59,553 nucleotides of DNA, from IMG/VR virus record IMGVR_UViG_3300016484_001067, positions 1-59,553 of that record; one strand, given 5' to 3'. The position numbers and the translations under genes were made by a program. Under the pieces are notes generated by a model. The model did no database searches, was not told the DNA's origin, and saw only the letters and a program-made list of their open reading frames with translations. Each line of letters starts with the position of its first letter. The first letter of the stretch is position 1. The DNA is from a virus (Duplodnaviria > Caudoviricetes). This document shows positions 928 to 52,851 of the stretch, piece by piece.

Positions 928-1588
928 GGGAGGCGCCCGGGTCAACTCCGGGCCGGCACCGGACCCGAACGCGCTGCGCCGCGACCGGCCGTCGGACGCC
1001 GCCGGCTGGACGACGCTCCCGGCCGAGGGCCGCCGCCGCGCGGACGGGAAGCCGTCCGCGTCGCCGCGGTGGCCGCTGCTGCCGGACATCGCGCTCGTGG
1101 CCGAGCACCGCGTCGTCTCGGGTCGGATCGACCTGATGCTGCGCGTCCTGGAGGAGAAGCTCGTCCTGGGGGACGACGTCTCGTCGCTCGAGGACAAGAT
1201 CGAGCGGGCGCAGAAGCGGCTTGAGGTGCTCGCGTTCCAGGTCGCGGAGCAGGACAAGCGCGAGAAGGCGCTCTGGCGCGAGGTCTGGCGGTACCCCCAG
1301 GCGATCATCTGGGAGCGGGACCACCAGCAGCGCGCCGTCGCGATGTTCGTCCGGCACCAGGTACTCGGCGAGCTCGGCTCCCTGGACGACGCCAAGGAGG
1401 CCCGGCAGTGGTCGGACCGCCTCGGCGTGAACCCGACCGCGATGCTGCGGAACCGGTGGAGGATCGCGACCGACGAGGTCAGCCAGCGCAGGCAGACCCG
1501 GACGTCGTCCGCTCCCGCCGCGCCGGCGCCCGTCGCGTCGGTGAGAGACCGTGCGCGGAAGCTGGCCGCCGGTGGCGGCGCAGCGTGA
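920..1588 (+). CDS. terS: Terminase small subunit
   Basis: MPRGGARVNSGPAPDPNALRRDR N-terminus and DRLGVNPTAMLRNRWRI motif typical of actinophage TerS; directly upstream of TerL. Confidence 0.85.
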   Translation: MPRGGARVNSGPAPDPNALRRDRPSDAAGWTTLPAEGRRRADGKPSASPRWPLLPDIALVAEHRVVSGRIDLMLRVLEEKLVLGDDVSSLEDKIERAQKRLEVLAFQVAEQDKREKALWREVWRYPQAIIWERDHQQRAVAMFVRHQVLGELGSLDDAKEARQWSDRLGVNPTAMLRNRWRIATDEVSQRRQTRTSSAPAAPAPVASVRDRARKLAAGGGAA

Positions 1589-3221
1589 GGCGCAGCCGCT
1601 CTACGTAGCCCCCGCCTGGATCGAGGCGCACTGCGTCGTCCCGGACGGCTTCCGCCGCGGCGCCCCGTTCAGCCTCTACGACTTCCAGCTCGAGTACCTG
1701 CTGAACTTCTACCTGGTCCGCGGCGACGCGGTCTGGGTGCCCGAGGCGCCGGTGCTCGGCCCGGCGTTCGTCTACCGCCGCGGCCTGCTCGTCGCCCCGC
1801 AGAAGATCGGCAAGGGCCCGAAGTCCGCGGCGCACACCTGCCTCGAAGGCGTCGGCCCGGCGCTGTTCGCCGGCTGGGCCGGAGCGGACGACGGGTACGC
1901 GTGCGCGGACTGGGGCTGCCGCTGCGGCTGGGAGTATCGCTACGAGCCCGGCGAGCCGATGGGCATGCCCTGGCCGACGCCGCTCATCCAGATCACGGCG
2001 CTCTCGCAGGAGCAGGTCGACAACATCTACGGCGCGCTGCGCCCGATGATCGACCTCGGCCCCCTGTCCGACGTCGTGCTCCGCACCGGCGAGGAGTTCA
2101 TCCGCCTCCCCGGCGACGGCCGCATCGACGCCGTCACCAGCTCGGCGCAGTCCCGCCTCGGCCAGCGCGTCACCTTCGTCCCCCAGGACGAGGTCGGCCT
2201 GTGGACGAAGACCAACAAGATGCAGGCCGTCGCGGACACCCAGTACCGCGGCCTGGCCGGCATGGGCGGCCGGGCGAGCCTCACGACGAACGCGTGGGAC
2301 CCGTCGCAGCACTCGGTCGCGCAGCAGCAGTTCGAGTCCTCCGCGAAGGACGTCTACCGGCAGTTCCGGCAGGCGCCCCGCGGGCTGTCCTACCGGAACA
2401 AGGCCGAGCGGAAGCGGATCCACCGCGCCGTCTACGGGGAGACGCTGCGCTCGGCCGGCGGCCACGTCGACGACGACAGCATCGACGCCGAGGCCGCCGA
2501 CCTGCTCGAGCGCGACCCGGCGCAGGCCGAGCGGTTCTTCGGGAACCGGATCGTGTCCGGTGCCGGCGCGTGGTGCCCGGACGAGCTCTGGGCGGACGCC
2601 GGCGCCCGGGCCCGGAAGGTCCCGGACGGCGCGCTCGTCGCGGTCGGGTTCGACGGCTCCGACGTCGACGACTGGACGGCCATCCGCCTCGAGACGGCGG
2701 ACGGGCACCGGTTCACCCCGACCTACGGGCCGGACGCCCGGCCAACGATCTGGGACCCGGCGGAGTGGGGCGGGGAGATCCCGCGCCAGGAGGTCCACGC
2801 AGCCGTCGACGAGCTGTTCCGCCGCTACACGGTCGTCCGGATGTACTGCGACCCGCGGGACTGGCGGTCGGAGATCGCCGACTGGGCGACCGAGCACGGC
2901 GAGAAGGTCGTCGTCGAGTGGGCGACGAACCGGATCGTCCAGATGCACGCGGCGCTCGAGCGGGCCCTGACCGACCTGAAGACCGGCCGGTCGACGCACG
3001 ACGAGGACCCGCTGACGACCCGCTGCGTCGGGAACGCCCGCAAGGCCGCCCGCCCGGGCGACCGGTACATCCTCACCAAGCCGGCCCCGAGCCAGAAGAT
3101 CGACGCCGCGATGGCGGACGTCCTGGCGCACGAGGCCGCCGCCGACGCGCACGCCGCCGGCGACTTCGAGCGCGCCGCGAAGGCCCGCAACAGGTCCAAG
3201 AAGATGCTCGTCCTGCGCTGA
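1572..3221 (+). CDS. terL: Terminase large subunit
   Basis: Walker A-like PQKIGKGP, Walker B FVPQDE, nuclease motifs GFDGS and KIDAAMA; start approximate. Confidence 0.93.
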   Translation: MAAQREAQPLYVAPAWIEAHCVVPDGFRRGAPFSLYDFQLEYLLNFYLVRGDAVWVPEAPVLGPAFVYRRGLLVAPQKIGKGPKSAAHTCLEGVGPALFAGWAGADDGYACADWGCRCGWEYRYEPGEPMGMPWPTPLIQITALSQEQVDNIYGALRPMIDLGPLSDVVLRTGEEFIRLPGDGRIDAVTSSAQSRLGQRVTFVPQDEVGLWTKTNKMQAVADTQYRGLAGMGGRASLTTNAWDPSQHSVAQQQFESSAKDVYRQFRQAPRGLSYRNKAERKRIHRAVYGETLRSAGGHVDDDSIDAEAADLLERDPAQAERFFGNRIVSGAGAWCPDELWADAGARARKVPDGALVAVGFDGSDVDDWTAIRLETADGHRFTPTYGPDARPTIWDPAEWGGEIPRQEVHAAVDELFRRYTVVRMYCDPRDWRSEIADWATEHGEKVVVEWATNRIVQMHAALERALTDLKTGRSTHDEDPLTTRCVGNARKAARPGDRYILTKPAPSQKIDAAMADVLAHEAAADAHAAGDFERAAKARNRSKKMLVLR

Positions 3222-3261: not shown

Positions 3262-4812
3262 GTGGACACGCTGCAGGTGCCGTTCCGGCGTGCTGCGCTC
3301 TCCACCCACGACGGCGAGCCGGAGCCCGGCTCCCCAGAGTGGTGGCTGGCCTGCCTCGAGCGCCGCCACAAGGCGGAGGTCGAGGACCTCGCCCGGCTCA
3401 ACGCGCACTACGAGGGCTCGCAGCCGCTGAGCTACATGGCGCCCGAGCTGGTCCTCGAGCTCGCCGACCGGCTCCGGCAGGTCGTCGTCGCCTGGCCGCA
3501 GCTCGTCATCGACTCCGTCGAGGAGCGCCTGGACGTCGAGGGCTTCCGCCTCGCCGAGGAGCCCGAGGCCGACGAGGACCTCTGGGCGCTCTGGCAGGCC
3601 AACGACCTCGACGAGTGGTCGCAGCAGGCGCACCTCGACGCGCTCATCATGCGCCGCTCCTACGCCATCATCGGCACCAACGACGAGGACGCCTCCCGGC
3701 CGCTCGTCAGCGTCGAGTCGCCGCTGCAGGTGATCCACGAGCGGGACCCCCGGACCCGGAAGGTGTCCGCGGCCGCGAAGTTCTGGTCGGACGGCGACGG
3801 CGACCGGAAGCGGTGCGCCACGCTCTACCTGCCGAACTCGACGTCGTGGTGGCTGCACGACGGGCACCGCTGGGTCCCGGACGGCGGCGACCGGGCGGTC
3901 GACGAGCACGGCCGCGGCGTCGTCCCGGTCGAGCCGATCGTGAACCGGCCCCGGCTGCGCGCAGCGACGGCGCACATCGACGCCGGGTCGCTGGGGGAAG
4001 GCACGAGCGACCTCGCCCCGGTCATCCCGCTGTCGGACGCCGCCTGCAAGATCGCGACCGACATGATGGTCGCGGCCGAGTTCCACGCGATGCCCCGCCG
4101 ATGGGCGCTCGGGTTCGCACCGGAGGACTTCCAGGACGAGCACGGCAACCCGGTCGGCGCGTTCTCCCGGGTCGCCGGGCGCCTCTGGGCGACCGAGCGG
4201 ACCAAGCAGGACGGCGCCGAGGTCGGCCAGTTCCCCGAGTCGAACCTGTCCGGCTTCCACGACACGATGAAGCTGCTCGGCCAGCTCGTCGCGTCGGTAT
4301 CCGGTCTGCCGCCGCACTACCTCGGCCTCGTGACCGACAACCCGTCGTCCGCGGACGCGATCCGCTCCGGCGAGGCCCGCCTCGTCAAGCGGGCCGAGCG
4401 CAAGCAGCGGTCGTTCGGCGGGTCCTGGGAGCGGGTCATGCGCCTGGCCATGCTCTGGCGCGACGGCACCGTCCCGCCCGAGGCGATGCAGATGGAGACC
4501 ATCTGGCGCGACGCGGCGACCCCCACCATCGGGCAGCGCGCCGACGCCGCGGTGAAGCTCTTCACCTCCAACGTCGTCCCGCTCCGGCAGACCCGCGAGG
4601 ACCTCGGCTACTCCGCCACGCAGATCGAGCGGATGGAAGAGCAGGACGAGCGGGCAGCCGCCCTCGCGTTCGGCCTCACCCCGCCCGACAAGACCGGAAC
4701 CCCACCGGCCGCAGCGTCCGGCATGGACGGCGGGGCCGGTGACGGCGAAGACGGCGCCGACGGCGGGGACGGCGCCGAGCCCGCAGACGGGGCGCCGGCG
4801 GCCGAGGACTGA
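3262..4812 (+). CDS. Portal protein (SPP1 gp6-like)
   Basis: Follows TerL; HYEGSQPL, WPQLVIDSVEERL, NPSSADAIRSGEARLVKRAE motifs; N-terminal PFRRAALSTHD extension. Confidence 0.93.
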   Translation: MDTLQVPFRRAALSTHDGEPEPGSPEWWLACLERRHKAEVEDLARLNAHYEGSQPLSYMAPELVLELADRLRQVVVAWPQLVIDSVEERLDVEGFRLAEEPEADEDLWALWQANDLDEWSQQAHLDALIMRRSYAIIGTNDEDASRPLVSVESPLQVIHERDPRTRKVSAAAKFWSDGDGDRKRCATLYLPNSTSWWLHDGHRWVPDGGDRAVDEHGRGVVPVEPIVNRPRLRAATAHIDAGSLGEGTSDLAPVIPLSDAACKIATDMMVAAEFHAMPRRWALGFAPEDFQDEHGNPVGAFSRVAGRLWATERTKQDGAEVGQFPESNLSGFHDTMKLLGQLVASVSGLPPHYLGLVTDNPSSADAIRSGEARLVKRAERKQRSFGGSWERVMRLAMLWRDGTVPPEAMQMETIWRDAATPTIGQRADAAVKLFTSNVVPLRQTREDLGYSATQIERMEEQDERAAALAFGLTPPDKTGTPPAAASGMDGGAGDGEDGADGGDGAEPADGAPAAED

Positions 4813-5912
4813 TGGCCGGCCCCGCCCGCGGCGTCCTCGACGTCGCGGACCGGTACCGCGCCGACCTCTCGGCAACCGGCCACCAGGCAGCCCTCATCCT
4901 GGCCCGGCTCTGGACCCGGATCGACCCGACCGACCCCGTCGCCTCGTGGACGCCGCTGCTCGCCCAGGCGATCGGCGCGTTCACCGCGGCGCAGGCGGCC
5001 GCGGCCGCGATGGCCGACGCCTACGTCGACGACGTCCTGCGCGCCCAGCAGCTCGACCGGACTGCGGCCGCGCTCGTCGACGCCACCGCGTTCGCCGGGA
5101 TCTCCGCGCAGGGCGTTGCGCTCGAGGACCTCCTGCGGATCCCCGCCCAGCGCACCGCCTACGCCCTCACCCGAGGCGTACCGCCCGGCACCGCGCTCGA
5201 CCTCGGCCGGGCGCTTCTCGGGATGTACGCCCGCACCGAGACCGCCGACGCCGGCCGGCTCGCAACCGCTGTCGCAGGCTCTGCCCGGAACGTCGGCGGG
5301 TACGTCCGGGCGCTCCGGCCGCCGTCATGCTCGCGGTGCGCGATCCTCGCCGGCCGCTGGTACCGCTACTCGTCCGGCTTCGCCAGGCACCCCCACTGCG
5401 ACTGCGTGAACGTGCCCGCCGAGAACGACATCGCGCCCGAGCTCGTCACCAGCCCGCTCACCGCGATCCGCGACGGCCAGGTCCACGGCCTGTCCCGCGC
5501 CGAACGGCAGGCCATCGACTTGGGCGCCGACCCCTCGCAGGTCGTCAACGCCCGCGAGGGCATGGCCACCGCGGCGGACGGCCGCCGGTACACCACGACC
5601 GGCACCACGGCCCGTGGCGTCGCGGGCGCCCGGATCCTCGCCCGCGACCTTGCCCGGGCGGCCGGAGCCGACCCGGGCGGCACCTACCGGAACTTCACCG
5701 TCTCCCGCGCCGAGATCGCCCGCTGGGAGGCGCAGTACGGGCCGCTCCTGGCCCGCGGCCGCACCTTCACCCGCACCACCGCCGGCCGAACCCAGACCTA
5801 CGCCTACCGGGTCACCCGCACCCGCCGGGCGTCCGTCGAGGACATCCTCGCCGGCTCGACGAGCCCCGACGACGCCGTCCGTCAGCTCATCAACCACGGC
5901 TACCTCCTGTAG
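4812..5912 (+). CDS. MuF-like minor capsid / head morphogenesis protein
   Basis: After portal; CSRC...RHPHCDC motif. Confidence 0.8.
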   Translation: MAGPARGVLDVADRYRADLSATGHQAALILARLWTRIDPTDPVASWTPLLAQAIGAFTAAQAAAAAMADAYVDDVLRAQQLDRTAAALVDATAFAGISAQGVALEDLLRIPAQRTAYALTRGVPPGTALDLGRALLGMYARTETADAGRLATAVAGSARNVGGYVRALRPPSCSRCAILAGRWYRYSSGFARHPHCDCVNVPAENDIAPELVTSPLTAIRDGQVHGLSRAERQAIDLGADPSQVVNAREGMATAADGRRYTTTGTTARGVAGARILARDLARAAGADPGGTYRNFTVSRAEIARWEAQYGPLLARGRTFTRTTAGRTQTYAYRVTRTRRASVEDILAGSTSPDDAVRQLINHGYLL

Positions 5913-5997
5913 CCGCCCCAGACCCGCCGTACCGGGACCGCGCAACGCGGCCCGGCCCGGCGCGCACCACCTCTGTCACCGAGACCAGGAGGCCGCA

Positions 5998-6732
5998 ATG
6001 GCTCCCGCCCCGGACGCAACGTCCACCGCCCCGCTCCGCGTGCTCGCGCTGCCGTTCCGTGTCGTCCTGTCGACGCACGACGACGAGCCGCCCGCACCGG
6101 CCGACCCGCCCGCCGCGGACCCGCCCGCCGACCCGATCCCAGGCCTCGAGAGCGACCCCGCACCGGCCGACCCGCCCGCCGACCCTGGCACCGAGCCCGG
6201 CGACAAGCCGCTCGGGCCCGCTGGGGAGAAGGCGCTCCGGGAGATGAAGCTCAAGCTCCGCGAGGCGGAGCGGTCCGCGAAGGCCAATGCTGCCGCCGCC
6301 GCCCGGCTGCGCGAGATCGAGGACGCGCAGAAGACCGAGACCGAGCGGCTCGCCGAGGCCAAGCAGGCCGCGGAGCAGCGCGCCGCCGCCGCGGAGCAGC
6401 GCGCCGTCGCCGCCGAGATCCGCGCCCTGGCCACCGACCGGTTCGCCGACCCCGCGGACGCCGTCGAGGCACTCTCCCGCGACGGCGCCGCGTTCGTCGG
6501 CCCCGACGGGACCATCGACGACGCCGCCATCCGCGACGCCCTCGACGGCCTCCTGGACCGCAAGCCGCACTGGGCTAAGCCCACCGCCACGCCCGCCCCC
6601 ACCGCGCCGCCTGCCCCCCGCCCGGACCCCTCGCAGGGCTCCCGGACGCCGCCGCCGCCGGTCGACTTCACCACCGCCTCCCCGGAGGAGTTCCGCGCGG
6701 AAGCCGCGAAGCTCGGCATCCGCCTGCCGTGA
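5998..6732 (+). CDS. Capsid scaffolding protein
   Basis: AGGAGG RBS; Pro/Asp-rich N-terminus, GEKAL motif, coiled coil, PDPSQG motif; N-terminal PFRVVLSTHD. Confidence 0.88.
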   Translation: MAPAPDATSTAPLRVLALPFRVVLSTHDDEPPAPADPPAADPPADPIPGLESDPAPADPPADPGTEPGDKPLGPAGEKALREMKLKLREAERSAKANAAAAARLREIEDAQKTETERLAEAKQAAEQRAAAAEQRAVAAEIRALATDRFADPADAVEALSRDGAAFVGPDGTIDDAAIRDALDGLLDRKPHWAKPTATPAPTAPPAPRPDPSQGSRTPPPPVDFTTASPEEFRAEAAKLGIRLP

Positions 6733-6953
6733 TCGTCGTCCGGGCAGTCGTCTCGGACGACGGCGGCGGCTTCACCTCGATCGAGGTGAGCGGCCACCAG
6801 GGGGCTGCCGCAGGTGGCGACGGGAAGGTCTGCACCGCAGTGACCACGCTCCTGCGGTCGCAGATCGCCTACCTCGACCGCCTCGCCCAAGCGTTCCCGG
6901 ACGCCCTGTCCGTGACGATCGAAGAAGGAGACACATCCTCATGTCCAACCTGA
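6729..6953 (+). CDS. prp: Prp-like (DUF464, ribosomal-processing) cysteine protease
   Basis: MIVVRAV..SIEVSGH(23)..DGKVC(35)TAVTTL and C-terminal LDRLAQAFPDALSVT resemble Prp (SGHA..DIVCAAVS; His and Cys 12 apart); GTGA-coupled to scaffold and overlaps the capsid start. Confidence 0.8.
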   Translation: MIVVRAVVSDDGGGFTSIEVSGHQGAAAGGDGKVCTAVTTLLRSQIAYLDRLAQAFPDALSVTIEEGDTSSCPT

Positions 6954-8305
6954 CCGCCCAGGCGGCCCGCGTCGTGCGGCCGGGCTGGCTCCGCGTCCCG
7001 TTCCAGCGCGTCGCCCTGGCGTCGCACGACATCCAGTCCGCTCTCCCGGCCGCGCTGCGCGCGACCGTCCAGCGGGGCTTCCTCGAGCGGCTCTTCAAGG
7101 AGTCGATGCGCCCGGCGTTCCTCTACGGCGCCGTCGCGGACGTCGAGCCGTTCATGGGCGGCGTCGGCGACCAGAAGACGATGACCCGCGCCGGTCTGCT
7201 CACCCCGCAGTCGACGCCGGTCACGCCGGGCTCGGACGCGGGCACGGGCACCTACGCGATCGAGCAGTGGAGCGTCACGCTCGACAAGTACGGCCTCGGC
7301 GTCGACACGGACATGCTCGCAAGCGTCGTCCAGCTGGCGAGCAAGTTCACCACCGACATCTCGCGGCTCGGCATCAACGCCGGCCAGTCGATCAACCAGG
7401 TGGCGCGGAACAAGCTCTACCGCGCGTACTCCGGCGGCCGCACGTTCGCGTCGTCCGGCACGACCTCCAGCACCACGCTCCCGGTCAACGACACCAGCGG
7501 CTTCGGCTTCGTGTCGGTCAACGGCGTGCTCACGGCGGTCTCCGGCTCCAACCCGCTGACCGTCACGGTCAACGGTGTCGCGAACACCGTCACCGGGGTC
7601 TCCACGTCGTCCGGCGCCGGCAACCTCACCCTCGGCACGGCGATCTCCGCCACCGCGGGCTGGACGGTCGTCGCCGCCAACGCCCCCACGTCGCTGCGCG
7701 CGGGCTCGGCGTCCTCGATCTTCGGCCTCACCGGCTCGGACGTCGTCACCTTCGCCATGTTCCGCTCCGCGGTCGCGCGGCTGCGGAAGATGAACGTCCC
7801 GACGGTGAACGGCAACTACGTCGCGCACATCGACGCGGACACCGAGACGCAGCTGTTCGCGGACAGCGAGTTCAAGCAGCTCTACCAGGGCCGCGCCGAC
7901 TCGCAGACGTACCGCGAGCTCAGCCTCGGCGTCCTCGGCGGCATCGACTTCGTCCGCAACACCGAGGCGCCGACCGTCCTGGGCGGCTCCGCCGGCACGC
8001 TGACGGTGCACCGGCCGATCGTCATGGGCGCGAACGCGCTCGTCGCGACCCCGCTGGAGGGCATCGCCGACCTGCTCCGGGGCTCCGAGGTCGAGGCCGT
8101 CCCGAACATCAGCATGGTCAACGCCGCGCCCGGCGTCGACGTCGCGCTGATCGTCCGGCCGCCGCAGGACCGGTTCCAGCAGATCGTGTCCTCGGCGTGG
8201 CAGTGGGTCGGCGACTACGCCGTGCCGACCGACCTCAACGCTGCGGTCCAGGGCGGCAGCGACCCCGCGCTCTACAAGCGGGCGATCGTCCTCGAGCACG
8301 CCTGA
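6941..8305 (+). CDS. Major capsid protein
   Basis: AAGGAG RBS; position after scaffold; 454 aa with a Ser/Thr/Gly-rich insertion; N-terminal PFQRVALASHD. Confidence 0.88.
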   Translation: MSNLTAQAARVVRPGWLRVPFQRVALASHDIQSALPAALRATVQRGFLERLFKESMRPAFLYGAVADVEPFMGGVGDQKTMTRAGLLTPQSTPVTPGSDAGTGTYAIEQWSVTLDKYGLGVDTDMLASVVQLASKFTTDISRLGINAGQSINQVARNKLYRAYSGGRTFASSGTTSSTTLPVNDTSGFGFVSVNGVLTAVSGSNPLTVTVNGVANTVTGVSTSSGAGNLTLGTAISATAGWTVVAANAPTSLRAGSASSIFGLTGSDVVTFAMFRSAVARLRKMNVPTVNGNYVAHIDADTETQLFADSEFKQLYQGRADSQTYRELSLGVLGGIDFVRNTEAPTVLGGSAGTLTVHRPIVMGANALVATPLEGIADLLRGSEVEAVPNISMVNAAPGVDVALIVRPPQDRFQQIVSSAWQWVGDYAVPTDLNAAVQGGSDPALYKRAIVLEHA

Positions 8306-9650: not shown

Positions 9651-11099
9651 GTGTCCGACTCCGACGTCTACAGCCTCCGGAGCAGCCCCGTCATGCGGCG
9701 CCGGCCCGACGGGCAGCGCAGCGGCTCCGCGGTGGACTGGGCCGCCCTCGACCCGATCCTGGACCGCGGTGAGGTCGGCTACGACGAGACCAACGGCACC
9801 CTCAAGGTCGGCGACGGCGTCAAGCGCTGGTCGCAGCTCGCCGGCATCTCCGGCGGCGGCGGGGGAGCAGTCTCCTCGGTCGACGGCCAGACCGGCGCCG
9901 TGGACCTGTCGAGCACGTATGCACCCATCGTCTCCGACTGGACGACGGGTCGCTCCTACGTCGTCGGGCAGATGGTCCTCAACGCCGGGACGCTTTACCG
10001 GTGCACCACCGCGCACACGGCTGGCGGCGCGTTCGCCCCTGCGAACTTCGCCGCTGTCGCGACCATCGCTGGCGCCCTCGTCCCGACCGCCACGAAGACG
10101 ACCGCCTACACCGCGGCGGTCGGCGAGCTCGTCCAGGCCGACGTCACGTCGGCGGGCTTCACGGTTACCCTGCCCGCCGCGCCGGCAATTGGTGCGCTCG
10201 TCGGCGTCAAGAACGTCACGCCGTCCGTGGCGAACACGCTCACCATTGCCGCCTCGGGCGGCGGGCTGATCGACGGCGACGCGACCGCGACGACGAACGT
10301 CCCCAAGTACGGCGGCGGCGTCTTCCAGCACCTCGGATCGAACAACTGGCAGGTCGTCGGCGTCTACACGTCGCAGGGGCCGGCGGGTCCGCCCGGACTG
10401 ACGGGCGCGACCGGCGCGACCGGCCCCGCGGGCCCGGGTGTCCCGACTGGCGGCACCACCGGACAGGCGCTCGTCAAAACGTCCGGGACGGACTTCGCGA
10501 CCGCCTGGGCGACCCCCGCGGCGACCATCCCGTCTTCCGCGCACTTCGGTGTCCGGTCCGGCAACTTCATGCGCGTCCCGCAGATCGCCACCTCTCTGGC
10601 GAGCAGCGCGTTCACGGCCGGCACGCTGTACTGCGTCCCGTTCCTGCTGACCGAGGCCGTGACCGTCACGAAGCTGGGCGTCATGCTGTGGACGCTGGGG
10701 ACGACTGGCGCGCTGATCCGGCTCGGGGTCTACAACGACGCGAACGGCTACCCGGGCACGGTGGCGATCGACGCGGGCACGATGGACGCGAGCCCGACGG
10801 GTGGCGCCATCACGACCATCAAGTCGATCACTCTGGGCTCGCCCGTGGGGCTCGCGGCTGGGACGTACTGGTCGGCGTTCGTCATCCAGGGCGCCCCCTC
10901 CACCGTGCCGAACGTCATCGGCGTCGGGGGGTCCTCCTCGATCGTGTCCCTCGCCACGATCCCGGCCGGCCTCGGCGGGTACACCGCGACGGGTGCAGGG
11001 TCCGGCGCCCTCCCGGCCACGTACCCGGCTGGCGCGGGCACCATCCGGGACATGACGAACGCCGCGAACCCCGTGCCCGCCGTTCTGATCGGAGCCTGA
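9651..11099 (+). CDS. Fibre / receptor-binding-like protein (Mtd/hyaluronidase-like N-terminus, CBM5/12-like module, short collagen repeat)
   Basis: WAALDPILDRGEVGYDETNGTLKVGDG; WTTGRSYVVGQMVLNAGTLYRCTTAHT; GPAGPPGLTGATGATGPAGPG. Confidence 0.75.
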   Translation: MSDSDVYSLRSSPVMRRRPDGQRSGSAVDWAALDPILDRGEVGYDETNGTLKVGDGVKRWSQLAGISGGGGGAVSSVDGQTGAVDLSSTYAPIVSDWTTGRSYVVGQMVLNAGTLYRCTTAHTAGGAFAPANFAAVATIAGALVPTATKTTAYTAAVGELVQADVTSAGFTVTLPAAPAIGALVGVKNVTPSVANTLTIAASGGGLIDGDATATTNVPKYGGGVFQHLGSNNWQVVGVYTSQGPAGPPGLTGATGATGPAGPGVPTGGTTGQALVKTSGTDFATAWATPAATIPSSAHFGVRSGNFMRVPQIATSLASSAFTAGTLYCVPFLLTEAVTVTKLGVMLWTLGTTGALIRLGVYNDANGYPGTVAIDAGTMDASPTGGAITTIKSITLGSPVGLAAGTYWSAFVIQGAPSTVPNVIGVGGSSSIVSLATIPAGLGGYTATGAGSGALPATYPAGAGTIRDMTNAANPVPAVLIGA

Positions 11100-11102
11100 C
11101 CG

Positions 11103-12536
11103 ATGCCAGTCCTCGGCCAAGGGACGAACCTGCCGAACTCTCCCGGCTACCTTCAGGTCCCGACGTGGAACGGCTCCGCGTGGGTGCCTCGGCAGGCGTC
11201 GGGCATCAAGAACTCGACGACCCCGGAAGCGTTCGGCGCGCTCGGGAACACCCCGGCCAACGACGACGCCCCGGCGATCGAGGCCGCCATCGCGGCGATG
11301 GTGGCGGCGTGCATCGCGGACGGCTCCTACGTCTGCGAAGTCGTCTTCGACGCCGGGAAGAACTACTACGCGAACCGCGCGCCCCGCTACAACCCGACGA
11401 TCAACGGGGCAGCGTCATACGCAAACGCGCAGATCGCACTGCCGCACGTGCCGTGGGACTGGCGCGTCCCCGGCGCCCCCAAGGTCCCATCCGGGACCTA
11501 CACCGGAGCAACCCCGCTCGTCACACTGATCCTGCGCTCGCAGGCGTCGCAGCAGGCGTCGAACACCTCGTTCAACCAGCAGCCCTGCTCGATCATCACG
11601 ACCCCGACGACGGGTGCGAGCAACGCCACCGACGGAAATGGTGTGCCTTCGGTCATCGGCGGCCCGGCCATGTACAACACCAACACGACCCCGCCAACGC
11701 AATGGTCCGGGATCAACCTCATCGTCGACGGCCTGAACGTCGTCAGTTCCGCCAACCCGCGGTTCTGCGGCCTCGACCTGACCGGCATCAACACCTGCGA
11801 GCTGTGGTCGCTGCACGTCACCGTGCCGACGCAGGGCTACGCCGCGCCGACCGCCTGCACTAACAAGATGGCGTTCGGGGTGCGCCTGCCCGCCAACCAG
11901 AACGGCGGGAAGATCCGCATCGGCACTCTCGGCGTCTATGGCTACTACTCGGGTATCGCCATGTCCGAGCACGTCATCGCGGACAACGTGATGCTCTACT
12001 GGAACCAGGTGGCGATCTGCTACGACCAGCCGGGCTCGCACGAGTCGTGGTTCAGCCAGCTCCAGACCTCCGGCAACGCCAACCTGATCGCGTTCGTTGA
12101 CCGCAACACTGGGGTCGGGCAGGTGCCGGGCGTCGAGATGCCGTTCGCGGTCGGCATGTGGGGCATGGAGGACATGTCCTCGAAGATCTGGGACCTGAAC
12201 AACCAGCTCAAGATCGAGGCGACCATCTACAACGTCCCCATCGGCGGGGCGACCAACCTGATCCCTCCGATGGACGGCGGCGCTAACGTCCGCCTGACGC
12301 AGCTCCGGCAGTCCCGCGGGTCGGTGACGGCTCCGTCGGTGCCCGCTACGACGGTCGCCTACAAGAACGCTTTCGGCCGCGACGCGTGGGTGACGGTCAC
12401 GGGCGGCACGGTCACCGGCATCGCGATCGACGGCGTGTCGACAGGCCTGACGTCCGGGCAGTTCGTCGTCCCGAACAACCGGACGATCACGCTGACGTAC
12501 TCGTCGGCTCCGACCTGGGCGTGGTGGCTGTTCTGA
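11103..12536 (+). CDS. Pectate-lyase-like beta-helix tailspike / polysaccharide depolymerase
   Basis: TTPEAFGALGNTPANDDAPAIEAAI matches the typical beta-helix cap motif; Asn/Gly/Thr-rich body. Confidence 0.7.
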   Translation: MPVLGQGTNLPNSPGYLQVPTWNGSAWVPRQASGIKNSTTPEAFGALGNTPANDDAPAIEAAIAAMVAACIADGSYVCEVVFDAGKNYYANRAPRYNPTINGAASYANAQIALPHVPWDWRVPGAPKVPSGTYTGATPLVTLILRSQASQQASNTSFNQQPCSIITTPTTGASNATDGNGVPSVIGGPAMYNTNTTPPTQWSGINLIVDGLNVVSSANPRFCGLDLTGINTCELWSLHVTVPTQGYAAPTACTNKMAFGVRLPANQNGGKIRIGTLGVYGYYSGIAMSEHVIADNVMLYWNQVAICYDQPGSHESWFSQLQTSGNANLIAFVDRNTGVGQVPGVEMPFAVGMWGMEDMSSKIWDLNNQLKIEATIYNVPIGGATNLIPPMDGGANVRLTQLRQSRGSVTAPSVPATTVAYKNAFGRDAWVTVTGGTVTGIAIDGVSTGLTSGQFVVPNNRTITLTYSSAPTWAWWLF

Positions 12537-41275: not shown

Positions 41276-41733
41276 CGGCCCCGAACGACCGCATCCGCGC
41301 CGCCGCGCTGCTCGCCCTCTCGGCCTGCGACGCCGCCGGCGTCACCGTCGCCCTCCTCGACATCAGCAACCACCGGGACGGCGAGGTCAACATCTACGGC
41401 CACCCGCGCATCACCGCCCGCCAGGCCAAGCAGATCCTCCACGTCGCCGGAACCGACCCGGCCACCCACCGCGGCAGGGCCAGCCACACCGGGGAGACCG
41501 ACGTCCTCGACGGCCGCACCCCCGACGGGCTGCGCCTCCTCGTCTCCTGCGAGCCGCACCTCGACCGGGAGAAGGCACTCGACGCCCTCGCCGAGCTCTC
41601 CGGCCGGCAGGTCACGGAGGACGACCGCAACAGCCTGGTCGACGCCTACCAGCGCGCGCTCGCCGGCATGCCCGGCCCCGCCGACCTGGCCCGGCTCGCC
41701 ACGGCCGCGCAGACCCTCGGGCTCGGTGCCTGA
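41272..41733 (+). CDS. Hypothetical protein
   Basis: GTGA coupling. Confidence 0.7.
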   Translation: MTAPNDRIRAAALLALSACDAAGVTVALLDISNHRDGEVNIYGHPRITARQAKQILHVAGTDPATHRGRASHTGETDVLDGRTPDGLRLLVSCEPHLDREKALDALAELSGRQVTEDDRNSLVDAYQRALAGMPGPADLARLATAAQTLGLGA

Positions 41734-42014
41734 TGGCCCGACCCCAGCTCGCCGCCGACCAGGTCGCCGACCGCACCTGGCCCCTGTTCGTCCAGCGCTG
41801 GCGCGCCAAGGCCCTGCCGTGGTGCGACACCTGCGAGCAGCCCGCCGTCCTCGTCCCCCTCGAGGGCTGGCGCCACGCCGGCATCGGCGCGCTCCCCATC
41901 GACCCCGCCCCGACTGGCCACCCCGTCACCGCCCTGCAGTGGCACGCCGGCCAGGACCAGCCCGACGCCACCCGCCCCGTGCTCGTCGCCATCACGGAGG
42001 ACGACCCCCGATGA
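41733..42014 (+). CDS. Hypothetical protein (CDTC..H)
   Basis: TGATG coupling. Confidence 0.65.
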   Translation: MARPQLAADQVADRTWPLFVQRWRAKALPWCDTCEQPAVLVPLEGWRHAGIGALPIDPAPTGHPVTALQWHAGQDQPDATRPVLVAITEDDPR

Positions 42015-44148: not shown

Positions 44149-44615
44149 CCCCGCCCCGGACCCGCCGCGCACCCGCGAGGACCCTCGGCGCGCCCCTCAC
44201 CCGCGCCGAGATGGACGCCCAGACCGCAGCAGCCATGCACGAGTCCGTCCTCCAGGGCCGCGTCGCAGGCCTCTGCAAGCAGTTCGGCGTCCGGCACTAC
44301 CACACCCACGACTCCCGCCGGTCGACGTCCGGGTGGCCCGACAGCGCCATGGTCGGCGTCGGCGGCTTCATGGTCCGCGAGCTCAAGCGCGAACGGGAGA
44401 AGCCCACCCCCGCCCAGCAGGCGTGGCTCGACGACCTCATCGCAGCGGGCATCAACGCCGGCGTCTGGCGCCCCTCCGACCTCATCTCCGGCCGCATCCA
44501 GACCGAGATCGCCGCGCTCGCCGGCCGCGAGCAGGAAGGCCGCCGCCTCACGACGGCCATGGACATCACCCGGGCGATGCTCGCCCGCCACCGCAACCAG
44601 GGAGACACCCCGTGA
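44145..44615 (+). CDS. VRR-NUC domain nuclease
   Basis: YHTHDSRRS..GWPD..RELK..PTPAQQAWL. Confidence 0.85.
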   Translation: MTPPRTRRAPARTLGAPLTRAEMDAQTAAAMHESVLQGRVAGLCKQFGVRHYHTHDSRRSTSGWPDSAMVGVGGFMVRELKREREKPTPAQQAWLDDLIAAGINAGVWRPSDLISGRIQTEIAALAGREQEGRRLTTAMDITRAMLARHRNQGDTP

Positions 44616-51964: not shown

Positions 51965-52851
51965 GCGCGACGACGAGCATCGAGTGGACCGACCGGACCT
52001 GGAACCCGGTCACCGGCTGCACCAAGGTGTCCGCCGGCTGCGACCACTGCTACGCCGAGACCCTCCACGAGCGGTTCCACGGCAAGGGATCGTTCGTCGC
52101 CGTCCGGCACCACTCCGAGCGGCTGCACCTGCCGCAGCGGTGGCGGAAGCCGTCCCGGATCTTCGTGAACAGCATGAGCGACCTGTTCCACGGGTCGGTC
52201 GCGGACGAGTTCATCGCCGAGGTCTGGGCCGTCATGGCGGTCACGCCGCGGCACACCTTCCAGGTCCTCACCAAGCGGCACGCCCGGATGCAGTCGCTGC
52301 TCAACAGCGACGCGTTCTGGGCCCTCGTCAACGCCGCCGTCGAGGTGCGCGTCCGGACGATGCAGAGCCGCTACGTCAGCGTCTCCTACGACCCGTCCGT
52401 CCGGGCACTGCCGAACGTGTGGCTCGGCGTCTCCGTCGAGGACCAGCGCTGGGCGGACATCCGCATCCCCGCGCTCCTACAGACCCCTGCCGCCGTTCGC
52501 TGGATCTCCGCCGAGCCTCTCCTTGGGCCGCTCGACCTCCACGAGCCCTACCTCAACCCCGGCCTCGACTGCCCCTGCGAGCAGGGCGGCGACCGGCTCT
52601 GCAGCCCGACCCTGGACTGGGTGGTCGTCGGCGGCGAGTCCGGCCCGGGCGCACGGCCGATGGACCCGTCCTGGGTCCGCCAGATCCGCGAGGACTGCGT
52701 CGCCAACTCCGCGCCGTTCCTGTTCAAGCAGTGGGGCGCGCACGACGCCTCCGGCCGCCGCGTCGGGAAGAAGGCCGCCGGACGCGAGCTCGACGGGCGC
52801 ATCTACGACGCCTACCCTGACGTGCCGGCGCTCGCGGGCGGTGCGGCGTGA
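51961..52851 (+). CDS. DUF5131 (phage Gp37/Gp68) three-Cys protein
   Basis: IEWTDRTWNPVTGCTKVSAGCDHCYA, FVNSMSDLFH, SAEPLLG, WVVVGGESG, FKQWG. Confidence 0.93.
   Translation: MSATTSIEWTDRTWNPVTGCTKVSAGCDHCYAETLHERFHGKGSFVAVRHHSERLHLPQRWRKPSRIFVNSMSDLFHGSVADEFIAEVWAVMAVTPRHTFQVLTKRHARMQSLLNSDAFWALVNAAVEVRVRTMQSRYVSVSYDPSVRALPNVWLGVSVEDQRWADIRIPALLQTPAAVRWISAEPLLGPLDLHEPYLNPGLDCPCEQGGDRLCSPTLDWVVVGGESGPGARPMDPSWVRQIREDCVANSAPFLFKQWGAHDASGRRVGKKAAGRELDGRIYDAYPDVPALAGGAA

Follow-up and report, generated by a model that had tools for sequence, protein, structure and literature searches.

We suggest that head maturation in this phage relies on a phage-encoded protease, a minimal Prp-family enzyme (mini-Prp) that trims N-terminally tagged head proteins, and we put the probability of this reading at roughly 0.78. 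The suggestion is based on the homology of the enzyme, the conservation of its dyad, the perfect co-occurrence of enzyme and tags and the position of the tag boundary, all of which were observed here. The window (the whole stretch of 59,553 bases that was analysed) contains the following features, where a slash marks the putative cut:

3262..4812, + strand: portal gene, 516 aa, SPP1-type (Pfam SPP1_portal, E 1.7e-36; PHROG 104 portal, E 1e-137)
3262..3312, + strand: portal N-terminal tag MDTLQVPFRRAALSTH/D, residues 1-17 (MDTLQVPFRRAALSTH16-D17), by motif search; then a GEPEPGSP linker and the conserved portal helix
4812..5912, + strand: VG15-family head protein gp4, 366 aa (Pfam VG15)
5998..6732, + strand: scaffolding protein gene, 244 aa (PHROG 4708 head scaffolding, E 2.6e-22; Pfam Phage_scaffold below cut-off; AGGAGG)
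5998..6081, + strand: scaffold N-terminal tag ...LRVLALPFRVVLSTH27/D28, by motif search; then a Pro/Asp-rich linker
6729..6953, + strand: putative mini-Prp cysteine protease gene, 74 aa (Pfam PF04327, 27.8 bits; PHROG 4478 'peptidase')
6941..8305, + strand: major capsid gene, 454 aa (PHROG 1357 major head protein; NCBIfam N4-gp56 family capsid, 63.5 bits, cut-off 60)
6941..7030, + strand: capsid N-terminal tag MSNLTAQAARVVRPGWLRVPFQRVALASH29/D30, by motif search

The source phage is of the Streptomyces type.

We propose the following mechanism. The protease would be the 74-aa minimal member of the Prp family (PF04327, MEROPS C108) whose gene lies upstream of the capsid gene and downstream of the scaffold gene, with the latter of which it is probably coupled in translation. 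A short N-terminal propeptide having the core hydrophobic-x-x-...-L(P4)-x-x-H(P1)/D(P1') would be carried by the newly made scaffold and major capsid proteins and, only in this phage, also by the portal. Mini-Prp, acting through a His23/Cys35 dyad, would bind this tag in the way canonical Prp binds ...L-N-L-Q-F-F/A in pre-L27 and in the scaffold and capsid proteins of phage 80alpha; a cut after His would leave mature capsid, scaffold and portal proteins starting with DIQSALP, DDEPPAP and DGEPEPG, respectively. We consider it likely that the enzyme accepts the tags of scaffold and capsid as substrates.

The 74-aa open reading frame as a Prp relative

At its start the ORF at 6729-6953 overlaps the scaffold stop codon (GTGA), and its last 13 nt are also the first of the capsid gene. 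Its product contains SGH23 and VC35TAV, with G22-H23, D31, C35 and T39 as the residues of note, and the His23-Cys35 spacing of 12 residues equals that of His22/Cys34 in S. aureus Prp. Against Pfam PF04327 (Peptidase_Prp) it scored 27.8 bits (E 3e-6), right at the cut-off of 27, and in a six-frame search with this model the same ORF scored 25.7 bits, slightly under the cut-off; with the NCBIfam ribosomal-Prp models it was far under (23 bits vs 136).

An exhaustive HMMER search recovered 25 relatives, most of them 57-81 aa and four 111-122 aa long, and the family alignment shows the mini forms to be full-length forms from which about 50 internal residues are missing. Gly-His (G22, H23) and Cys (C35) were invariant in 25/25 aligned members, the shortest included. 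A profile built from the mini forms alone (n = 21) reached S. aureus Prp (4peo/7kld) at E 8.5e-9, and its five top PDB matches were all Prp-family structures (4peo/7kld, then 1s12, 2g0i, 7jvs and 2idl); a profile of only the five closest relatives gave E 0.03 at best against a Prp structure. By sequence profile, the ORF product is thus a homologue of the Prp family, and the enzyme is a truncated form in which roughly half of the fold of canonical Prp is missing. Its D31 and T39 fall near the positions of Asp31 and Ser38, which the activity of S. aureus Prp is reported to require (PMC9261936). The AF2 monomer model of mini-Prp (pLDDT 87.7) consists of a hairpin and a long helix only; Foldseek with this model retrieved no Prp structure and no match at E<=0.001 in PDB or BFVD, so that the model gives no demonstration of a Prp-like three-dimensional active site, and a co-fold yielded nothing. 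The original prediction of a Prp relative thus stands on the profile side (PF04327 and the mini-only profile) and gained nothing from the fold search; its coordinates and residues for this ORF and the three tags were confirmed.

The S78, ClpP, S77 and S49 families had no match anywhere in the window, in agreement with the view that an HK97-type prohead protease is missing. Among actinobacterial hosts, the 7.3 Mb Kineosporia genome contained a single PF04327 match, which is a prophage copy, and the PF04327 search of Corynebacterium glutamicum, taken as a control, was negative. This agrees with Actinobacteria not being known to use the L27/Prp system, and, judging from these genomes, the host cannot supply the enzyme.

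Distribution and boundary of the tags

In all six frames of the window, PF.{3,4}L.[ST]HD gave three matches in all, at the N-termini of the portal, scaffold and capsid proteins, as had been claimed. Two relaxed expressions added one match each (52714-52746 and 44283-44312), neither at the start of a called gene. Shine-Dalgarno sequences precede all three tagged starts, with ribosome-binding sites graded strong: AGGAGG ahead of the scaffold ATG at 5998, GAAGGAG ahead of the capsid ATG at 6941 and GGAAGGGG ahead of the portal GTG at 3262. The portal and capsid tags are identical at 9/14 residues but at only 28/42 bases, and different codons are used at 5 of the 9 identical residues, which indicates that the tags are not a DNA repeat.

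Comparison with untagged homologues places the tag boundary at H-D in both capsid and scaffold. Untagged capsids begin MP-ISNFPAALQ, MA-IANFPASLQ or MSFRDALPASLQ and align to D30-IQSALPAALR of the window; their consensus start, M-[PA]-I-x-N-F-P, falls at D30/I31 (two adjacent residues), where the tag ends. The untagged scaffold-like protein of phage Hyacinthe begins MA-DPDPNPNP and aligns to H/D-DPDPADP of the tagged scaffolds. H29 was invariant in the 23 aligned capsid N-termini. Scaffold tags were present in 32/32 relatives with the N-terminus in view, always ending in [HF]/[DE] ahead of a DPxP linker, with Phe replacing His at P1 in four scaffolds (loci L004, L046, L047 and L054). In twelve low- and mid-GC loci that have a mini-Prp, the scaffold and capsid bear tags such as LKLNLKQF/EE and LKLNLQQF/KA, similar to the proven Prp site LKLNLQFF/A (PMC9405229 Table 1; PMC5744158). 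P4 is Leu throughout the tags, as in the S. aureus Prp complex, where P1, P2, P4 and P6 are reported to lie in hydrophobic environments. Known Prp sites are Phe/Ala, with a P1' reported to be limited in size, and His at P1 and Asp at P1' in the window count against such a site. Since His alternates with Phe, a P1 of Prp known from experiments (PMC5744158), a cut after His is favoured, and we infer, with moderate confidence, that the scissile bond lies between H and D. The H/D cut put forward earlier is consistent with both the boundary and this alternation; the exact bond is probable.

The co-occurrence count covered non-redundant homologues of the capsid whose sequence extends 300 nt or more upstream, after exclusion of 57 duplicates, 2 loci with short upstream sequence, 3 N-terminally cut loci, and L032 and L033, in which the anchor expression did not match. 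A mini-Prp gene was found within 700 nt upstream of all 88 tagged capsids (88/88) and on neither strand of the loci with untagged capsids (0/7); no tagged capsid lacked mini-Prp and no untagged one had it. The association of a prp-like gene with the HD motif, for which the original prediction had proposed a survey, is thus perfect. L032 (Ralstonia phage Hyacinthe) and L033 (Komagataeibacter phage phiKX1) are complete genomes; inspected by hand, both were untagged and Prp-less, and the positive controls matched. The co-occurrence is phylogenetically clustered, the untagged capsids belonging to one distant clade (39-46% identity), and the 88/7 table may go back to as little as one gain or loss. 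The protease-and-tag system characterises a whole family, with 88 or more non-redundant loci. The idea of a self-contained system is therefore supported by homology, co-occurrence and a Prp-less host, but it is not confined to this phage, and that cleavage takes place is what we infer. The window and the Kineosporia prophage share a clade-specific tag variant, L-[SA]-[ST]-H, and their lineages have GHQ in the protease; the main clade has GHE, paired with Arg at P2.

The portal bears the tag in this phage only (1/85 distinct portal N-termini, the other 84 being without it), so that comparative support is absent. The 72%-identical portal of the Kineosporia prophage also lacks it, reading V-P-APNA-D where the window has V-P-FRRAALSTH-D. 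On these grounds, it is plausible, at somewhat less than even odds, that the portal tag is a recent insertion, neutral or otherwise used, which is not processed. However, every position conserved in the clade is kept (PF, Leu at P4 and S-T-H-D), a flexible GEPEPGSP linker lies between the tag and the conserved portal helix, and the synonymous codons at 5/9 residues identical to the capsid tag argue for selection on the peptide. No in-frame start codon was found between the tag and the conserved N-terminal helix; the portal tag is thus translated, and the true start does not lie downstream of it. That the portal is processed as well seems slightly the better guess. The proposed extension of the system to the portal stands as far as the tag is concerned, and its cutting may be supposed.

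Other explanations for the tags

The tag could be mainly an assembly or chaperoning signal with mini-Prp as its reader, cleavage being secondary, slow or absent; binding would then gather portal, scaffold and capsid subunits or keep them folding-competent. According to PMC5744158, uncleavable capsid and scaffold mutants of 80alpha are viable and pre-cleaved scaffold gives no capsids; since cleavage is dispensable there and the scaffold N-terminus is required for assembly, the tag may have a more important role than being removed. Canonical Prp was handled as a dimer in assays (PMC9261936), which makes a reader with two binding sites conceivable. In addition, the sister clade within this capsid family does without tag and protease, so processing is not intrinsic to the capsid fold. 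However, the invariance of Gly-His and Cys in 25/25 members would be unnecessary in a binding protein, and the tag ends at the N-terminus of untagged homologues, as expected for a removed tag. We consider a mere reader unlikely.

It is still less probable that a different protease, either a host enzyme or the VG15-family gp4, removes the tags while mini-Prp has another role. GenBank gives the gp4 homologue of phage Kromp the label 'capsid maturation protease', PHROG 1522/193 are named 'head maturation protease', and the gp4 family has an invariant cluster of C173, C176, H193, C196 and C198. However, Pfam VG15 was the sole match in 19/19 members, Phage_Mu_F did not match, phmmer against PDB sequences found nothing, and the AF2 model of gp4 (pLDDT 83) had no PDB fold match at E<=0.001; the protease name thus comes from annotation only. 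The CxxC...HxxCxC pattern seems to resemble a metal-binding cluster more than a catalytic dyad, and the tags track the presence of mini-Prp (in a table that scores mini-Prp against tag). Finally, an artefact of wrong start codons, chance similarity or an in-frame repeated DNA or RNA element, for which the long spurious ORFs typical of high-GC genomes and the GTG start of the portal could speak, is very improbable given the Shine-Dalgarno sequences at all three starts, the three matches in six frames, conservation at the protein rather than the DNA level, and the recurrence of tags on the same pair of genes in 88 non-redundant relatives.

Relation to known systems

The S78, ClpP-like (S14), T4 gp21-type (S77) and S49 proteases have the role proposed here for mini-Prp, N-terminal trimming of capsid, scaffold and sometimes portal during maturation, and are encoded at the same position among the head genes, but they have unrelated serine-protease folds, none of them present in the window. 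The lambda portal gpB undergoes trimming.

Streptococcus phage Cp-1 likewise encodes a Prp-family cysteine protease acting on the capsid N-terminus: its enzyme, placed with Prp in MEROPS C108, is reported to trim 48 N-terminal residues off the major head protein (PMC12445089; PMC9405229). The host of Cp-1, in contrast, is a Firmicute whose own ribosome uses Prp. A tblastn search of 50,697 phage records with two mini-Prps did not match Cp-1.

The same module is present in Streptomyces phage Kromp (GenBank MH744420), in which gp5-gp6-gp7 are scaffold, a 62-aa 'protease' and capsid in the same order, with the tags GWFQLTRH/DDPDP (scaffold) and SWFRLDRH/DIRTTLP (capsid). Window and Kromp proteins share 39-61% identity (54% for the major capsid proteins). 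Kromp differs in its untagged portal and in combining a W-F-x-L-x-R-H/D tag with a GHE protease, where the window has L-S-T-H/D and GHQ. The gene of this isolated phage was already annotated, simply as 'protease'; our literature search found no publication describing the tags.

With canonical Prp (phage-related ribosomal protease; PF04327/DUF464, MEROPS C108) mini-Prp shares the His/Cys dyad in a G-H...C-A-A-V-[ST] context. The putative substrates are also alike: a short N-terminal extension common to otherwise unrelated proteins, as in pre-L27 and the 80alpha capsid and scaffold, with both scaffold and capsid tagged (PMC5744158; PMC9405229), and with Leu at P4, a hydrophobic P6 and an aromatic or imidazole side chain at P1. 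Unlike canonical Prp, which is host-encoded, mini-Prp is encoded by the phage in hosts without Prp, outside any rplU-prp-rpmA operon; it is shorter, with 74 aa against about 106, an internal stretch of some 50 residues being absent, and is far under the NCBIfam ribosomal-Prp cut-offs. The window motif ends in L-x-x-H/D, the canonical one in L-Q-F-F/A, and in this phage, in contrast to 80alpha, the portal is tagged as well.

Head-gene block and the small Prp-like gene

With 59,553 bases and 73% G+C, the window represents all or nearly all of a viral genome, and the following features were found in the standard head-gene block at its left end.

Head-gene features (window coordinates)
1551-3221, plus strand: large terminase
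3262-4812, plus strand: SPP1-type portal (Pfam E 1.7e-36)
4812-5912, plus strand: VG15-family protein (Pfam VG15), hereafter gp4
5998-6732, plus strand: scaffolding protein
6729-6953, plus strand: 74-aa ORF, hereafter mini-Prp, between the scaffold and capsid genes
6941-8305, plus strand: major capsid protein

The start of the 74-aa ORF overlaps the scaffold stop (GTGA), and at its other end it shares 13 nt with the beginning of the capsid gene. The gene order was identical in the nearest isolated phage, Streptomyces phage Kromp (MH744420), which is propagated on S. lividans and in which the small ORF is annotated as 'protease'. Kromp was also the only phage matched by the mini-Prps in a tblastn search of 50,697 GenBank phage records. 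In addition, an ORF at the small-terminase position (911-1588) matched PHROG 226 (E 1.8e-15); this PHROG is named 'minor tail protein', probably wrongly for a gene so placed. Directly behind the head-tail adaptor gene lies a 482-aa ORF (9651-11099) that encodes a collagen-like Gly-X-Y run (GPAGPPGLTGATGATGPAGPG), and next come a 477-aa ORF (11103-12536) and the remaining tail genes.

Prp is known as an essential ribosome-maturation protease of Firmicutes, borrowed by one staphylococcal phage, and it is being pursued as an antibiotic target. As originally predicted, the 74-aa ORF was Prp-like: with 27.8 bits (E 3e-6), it just passed the threshold of 27 bits for Pfam Peptidase_Prp (PF04327, MEROPS C108), the marginal match spanning profile positions 3-55 of 90. 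Searched in six frames, the window scored 25.7 bits, slightly below this cut-off, and the copy from a Kineosporia-genome prophage, the closest relative, scored 28.7 bits. When 1.84 billion representatives were searched exhaustively with HMMER, the ORF had 25 relatives at E<=0.001, most of them 57-81 aa and four 111-122 aa long. According to the alignment of 25 sequences, the short forms correspond to the long forms minus internal ~50 residues. G22, H23 and C35 were invariant, A37 and V38 were at least 90% conserved, and C-A-A-V-[ST] was nearly invariant; the 21 mini forms alone showed the same conservation around the dyad (Gly-His ... Cys-Ala-Ala-Val-Ser/Thr). The position of T39 corresponds to Ser38 of S. 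aureus Prp (PMC9261936).

Against PDB, the profile of mini forms only (A7) matched S. aureus Prp (4peo/7kld) with E 8.5e-9, the best five matches all being Prp-family structures. The family profile (A2) matched solved Prp with E 3.9e-11, the match being split between chain residues 1-57 and 82-104, and the five window-clade sequences alone reached only E 0.03. A second match of the mini-Prp profile in the window (41667-41741, minus strand, E 0.012, 12 bits) is most likely noise.

The expectation that the ORF adopts the Prp fold was not borne out. The AF2 monomer of the 74-aa protein (pLDDT 87.7) consisted of two strands forming a hairpin and one long helix, a complete Prp fold having about 105-120 aa, and Foldseek with this model found no Prp in PDB (best E 5.6) or BFVD. 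When mini-Prp in two copies was co-folded with the first 55 capsid residues, from alignment input and without controls, the partner-chain score was 0.01 with a mark of 0.32, which speaks neither for nor against the proposal. With the NCBIfam equivalogs of ribosomal Prp (PRK14553), the best score was 23.1 bits, far short of the cut-off (136), and the rplU-prp-rpmA operon context was absent, the gene sitting between phage scaffold and capsid genes. Judged by its sequence, mini-Prp is a member of the Prp family and not a complete Prp fold.

Other candidate proteases and the host

Actinobacteria are not known to use the L27/Prp system. In agreement with this, the 7.3-Mb Kineosporia genome contained one PF04327 match, which was the prophage copy, so that the host would be unable to supply Prp. 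Among 14 control genomes, PF04327 was matched only in those of B. subtilis, T. maritima and L. lactis, and C. glutamicum was one of those without a match.

It should be noted that gp4 bears protease labels: the Kromp annotation calls it a 'capsid maturation protease', and PHROG 1522 a 'head maturation protease'. A protease role for gp4 found no support: Pfam VG15 was the sole family match in 19 of 19 members, PDB gave no sequence match, and a confident model (pLDDT 83) had no fold match in PDB at E<=0.001. The idea that gp4 is MuF-like, which came from its HP-x-C-x-C motif, was dropped, Pfam Phage_Mu_F being unmatched at E<=10. Within gp4 (4812-5912), the residues C173, C176, H193, C196 and C198 were invariant, and this CxxC...HPxCxC arrangement looks like a metal-binding cluster.

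The reported lack of an HK97-type prohead protease also held, since S78 (PF04586) had no matches at E<=1 in the 59,553-base record. The same search gave no matches for S14 ClpP (PF00574), S77 (PF03420) or S49 (PF01343), and control genomes matched each of the four families.

N-terminal tags and the presumed cut site

A short shared motif (the tag) was located near the N-termini of the portal (LQVPFRRAALSTH16-D), scaffold (LALPFRVVLSTH27-D) and capsid (LRVPFQRVALASH29-D), and each of these starts is preceded by a good Shine-Dalgarno sequence. The motif had been noticed at these three head-protein N-termini and at the start of no other ORF, and a regex search of the whole window in six frames indeed returned these sites only. 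The portal and capsid tags are identical at 9/14 residues and 28/42 bases, with different codons at five of the nine identical residues; thus, it is the protein sequence that has been preserved, and a DNA repeat does not account for the likeness. In the Kineosporia prophage, the capsid tag is LRVPFQRAAVASH|D and the scaffold tag is LPLRAVLATH|D. In an alignment, the window-clade capsid tag (6983-7027) resembles W-F-R-L-x-R-H with a seven-residue insert, VPFQRVA, between W-L-R and L-A-S-H.

At the presumed P1 position, His was invariant in 23 aligned capsid tags and was replaced by Phe in four scaffolds (LARF|D), while the following residue varied (D, A or E). Low- and mid-GC relatives had scaffold and capsid tag pairs such as KRLSVNISQF|DGE with KRLSVNIGQF|ETF and LKLNLKQF|EE with LKLNLQQF|KA. 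These tags closely resemble LKLNLQFF|A, the proven site for Prp in L27 and 80alpha (PMC9405229, Table 1; PMC5744158). When the actinophage tag is aligned on this site, His falls at P1, Leu at P4 and Phe at P6, which agrees with the hydrophobic contacts at P1, P2, P4 and P6 described for the S. aureus Prp complex (PMC9261936). Together, these observations point to a cut between H and D, as originally predicted, which we consider somewhat more probable than a cut at D|x.

The residue after the catalytic His (G22-H23 at 6795-6800, then Q24) makes the enzyme motif GHQ in four loci: the window and the relatives L002/L030 and L028. GHQ accompanies Ser at P2 of the tag in these four loci, and Ser or Thr at P2 when the window clade is taken together; GHE accompanies Arg at P2 in 34 other loci. 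This pattern is consistent with co-evolution of enzyme and tag, although, as a single evolutionary switch, it is weak evidence.

The proposed extension of the tag to the portal is real in sequence but specific to the window phage, whose portal was the only tagged one among 85 distinct portal N-termini examined. The Kineosporia prophage portal, 72% identical to that of the window, has no tag and reads V-P-APNA-D against V-P-FRRAALSTH-D in the window. Cleavage of the portal tag is the least secure of our proposals, with odds barely better than even. Most related portals open with a W-L-x-H-L-I-x-C-H-D-K helix (e.g., L001:2437-2500), the window equivalent being W-W-L-A-C-L-E-R-R-H-K. In its form W-L-x-x-L-I-x-C-H-D, this helix fits a loose tag regex; it was rejected as a tag because, in the alignment, nearly all homologues have it within the portal body, even where the locus lacks mini-Prp. 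Two other loose portal matches (L112 and L128) were rejected as well, since no plausible start codon precedes them and their loci lack the module.

Enzyme and tags among relatives, and known systems

A total of 211 loci were gathered from IMG/VR, metagenome and genome collections scanned with the protease, portal and capsid. From the capsid-based scan, the best 80 of 576 relatives were taken; protease-profile scans of metagenomes and genome contigs gave only three further loci. The usual tag in high-GC relatives was W-F-x-L-x-R-H-D, followed by a D-P-x-P linker in the scaffold and by [IV]-R-[ST]-T-L-P-A-A-I in the capsid. Scaffolds were tagged in 32/32 loci with the scaffold N-terminus in view.

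The co-occurrence of gene and tag, for which a survey had been suggested, was counted for non-redundant capsid homologues with at least 300 nt upstream, mini-Prp being sought within 700 nt upstream. As a result, 88 capsids were tagged and had a mini-Prp, seven had neither, and the mixed classes were empty; 57 duplicates, two loci with short upstream sequence, three N-terminally cut capsids and the phages Hyacinthe (L032) and phiKX1 (L033) were left out of the count. In the seven untagged loci, mini-Prp was found on neither strand. The 88/7 table may reflect very few independent events, since the untagged capsids form a distant clade (39-46% identity). Across no fewer than 88 non-redundant loci of phages and prophages, the putative mini-Prp/tag pair is conserved, and its specificities differ between clades.

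Mini-Prp was absent from Ralstonia phage Hyacinthe and from Komagataeibacter phage phiKX1, both complete genomes, in a search whose positive controls matched; the Hyacinthe annotation lists no protease between its portal and capsid genes. Their untagged capsids start with MP-ISNFPAALQ and MA-IANFPASLQ, respectively, and the scaffold-like protein of Hyacinthe with MA-DPDPNPNP; these starts fall exactly at the residue following the tag His. The untagged sister clade of the capsid family comprises L202, L204, L205, L207-L209, L211, L032 and L033, some of them from phages of Proteobacteria.

Two tandem tags were observed in the capsid genes of L008/L009 (5192-5401), L180 and L181 (SWFRLDRHD-GLRTLIPSPAA...-ARPWFDLGRHD-VRSTLP), and a partial second copy (AYRFG...AFRFDLARHD) in L026/L027 and L196/L197. 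These copies suggest that tags may duplicate and move as units. In addition, 12 low- and mid-GC (38-53%) viral contigs (L034-L038, L043-L045, L049-L052) carried a 59-65-aa mini-Prp upstream of the scaffold, in the order protease, scaffold, capsid. In these loci, both scaffold and capsid start with L27-like tags ending in Q-F, Q-x-F or L-F.

Based on the above results, we propose mini-Prp as the enzyme that takes the tags off scaffold and capsid, with a probability of about 0.78. The shared tag on three head proteins beside a Prp-like gene was thus confirmed as an observation, and its interpretation as a self-contained protease-and-tag head system is supported. More speculatively, and in our opinion improbably, the mini-Prp family could be more than a processing enzyme, namely a portable 'tag-and-trim' module of head assembly. 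Its ~60-residue core and 8-15-residue tag would co-evolve like lock and key, R-H|D being paired with GHE, S-T-H|D with GHQ and Q-F| with the low-GC forms; the tag could be grafted onto any protein entering or licensed at the procapsid, the portal being such a graft. If the small protease were a dimer holding two tags, it would nucleate the co-assembly of portal, scaffold and capsid and then free the parts by cleavage; such a role would also account for 80alpha, in which the scaffold tag is needed and its removal is not.

If confirmed, mini-Prp would rank with the smallest proteases of defined sequence specificity, and since its tag is defined and transferable, protein engineering could profit from it. 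The family would also offer a natural specificity-switch series (F|, RH|D, STH|D) for substrate reading by Prp, and a clean system for the role of N-terminal tags in capsid assembly, including a naturally tagged portal. The annotation 'capsid maturation protease' would need correction for the VG15-family gene, which has no detectable protease features. Full-text literature searches, with the primary Prp and Cp-1 papers and supplements outside their scope, found no published account of a mini-Prp tag system. In passages of two recent preprints, the group that named Prp still calls the phage tags 'intriguing' and does not mention phage-encoded mini forms.

The window system resembles that of 80alpha, as described in PMC5744158, in that the same N-terminal motif stands on non-homologous head proteins, three of them in the window, together with a Prp-family enzyme. 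However, 80alpha uses the Prp of its host (PMC5744158), whereas the window phage encodes its own; in the reverse of such borrowing, the phage would supply Prp-less hosts with a pared-down 60-74-residue enzyme and its own tags. The 80alpha motif L-x-L-x-L-Q-F-F|A, which is cut after Phe, was not found in the window tags, whose PF-x(3-4)-L-x-[ST]-H|D shares with it only the P4 Leu and the hydrophobic periodicity. Unlike the window, low-GC members of the family carry L-x-Q-F-type tags. According to PMC12445089 and PMC9405229, a phage-encoded member of the Prp family is already known from Cp-1. The putative window system differs from the known ones in its minimal enzyme, His|Asp-type site, Prp-less hosts, family-wide coupling of gene and tag, and tagged portal.
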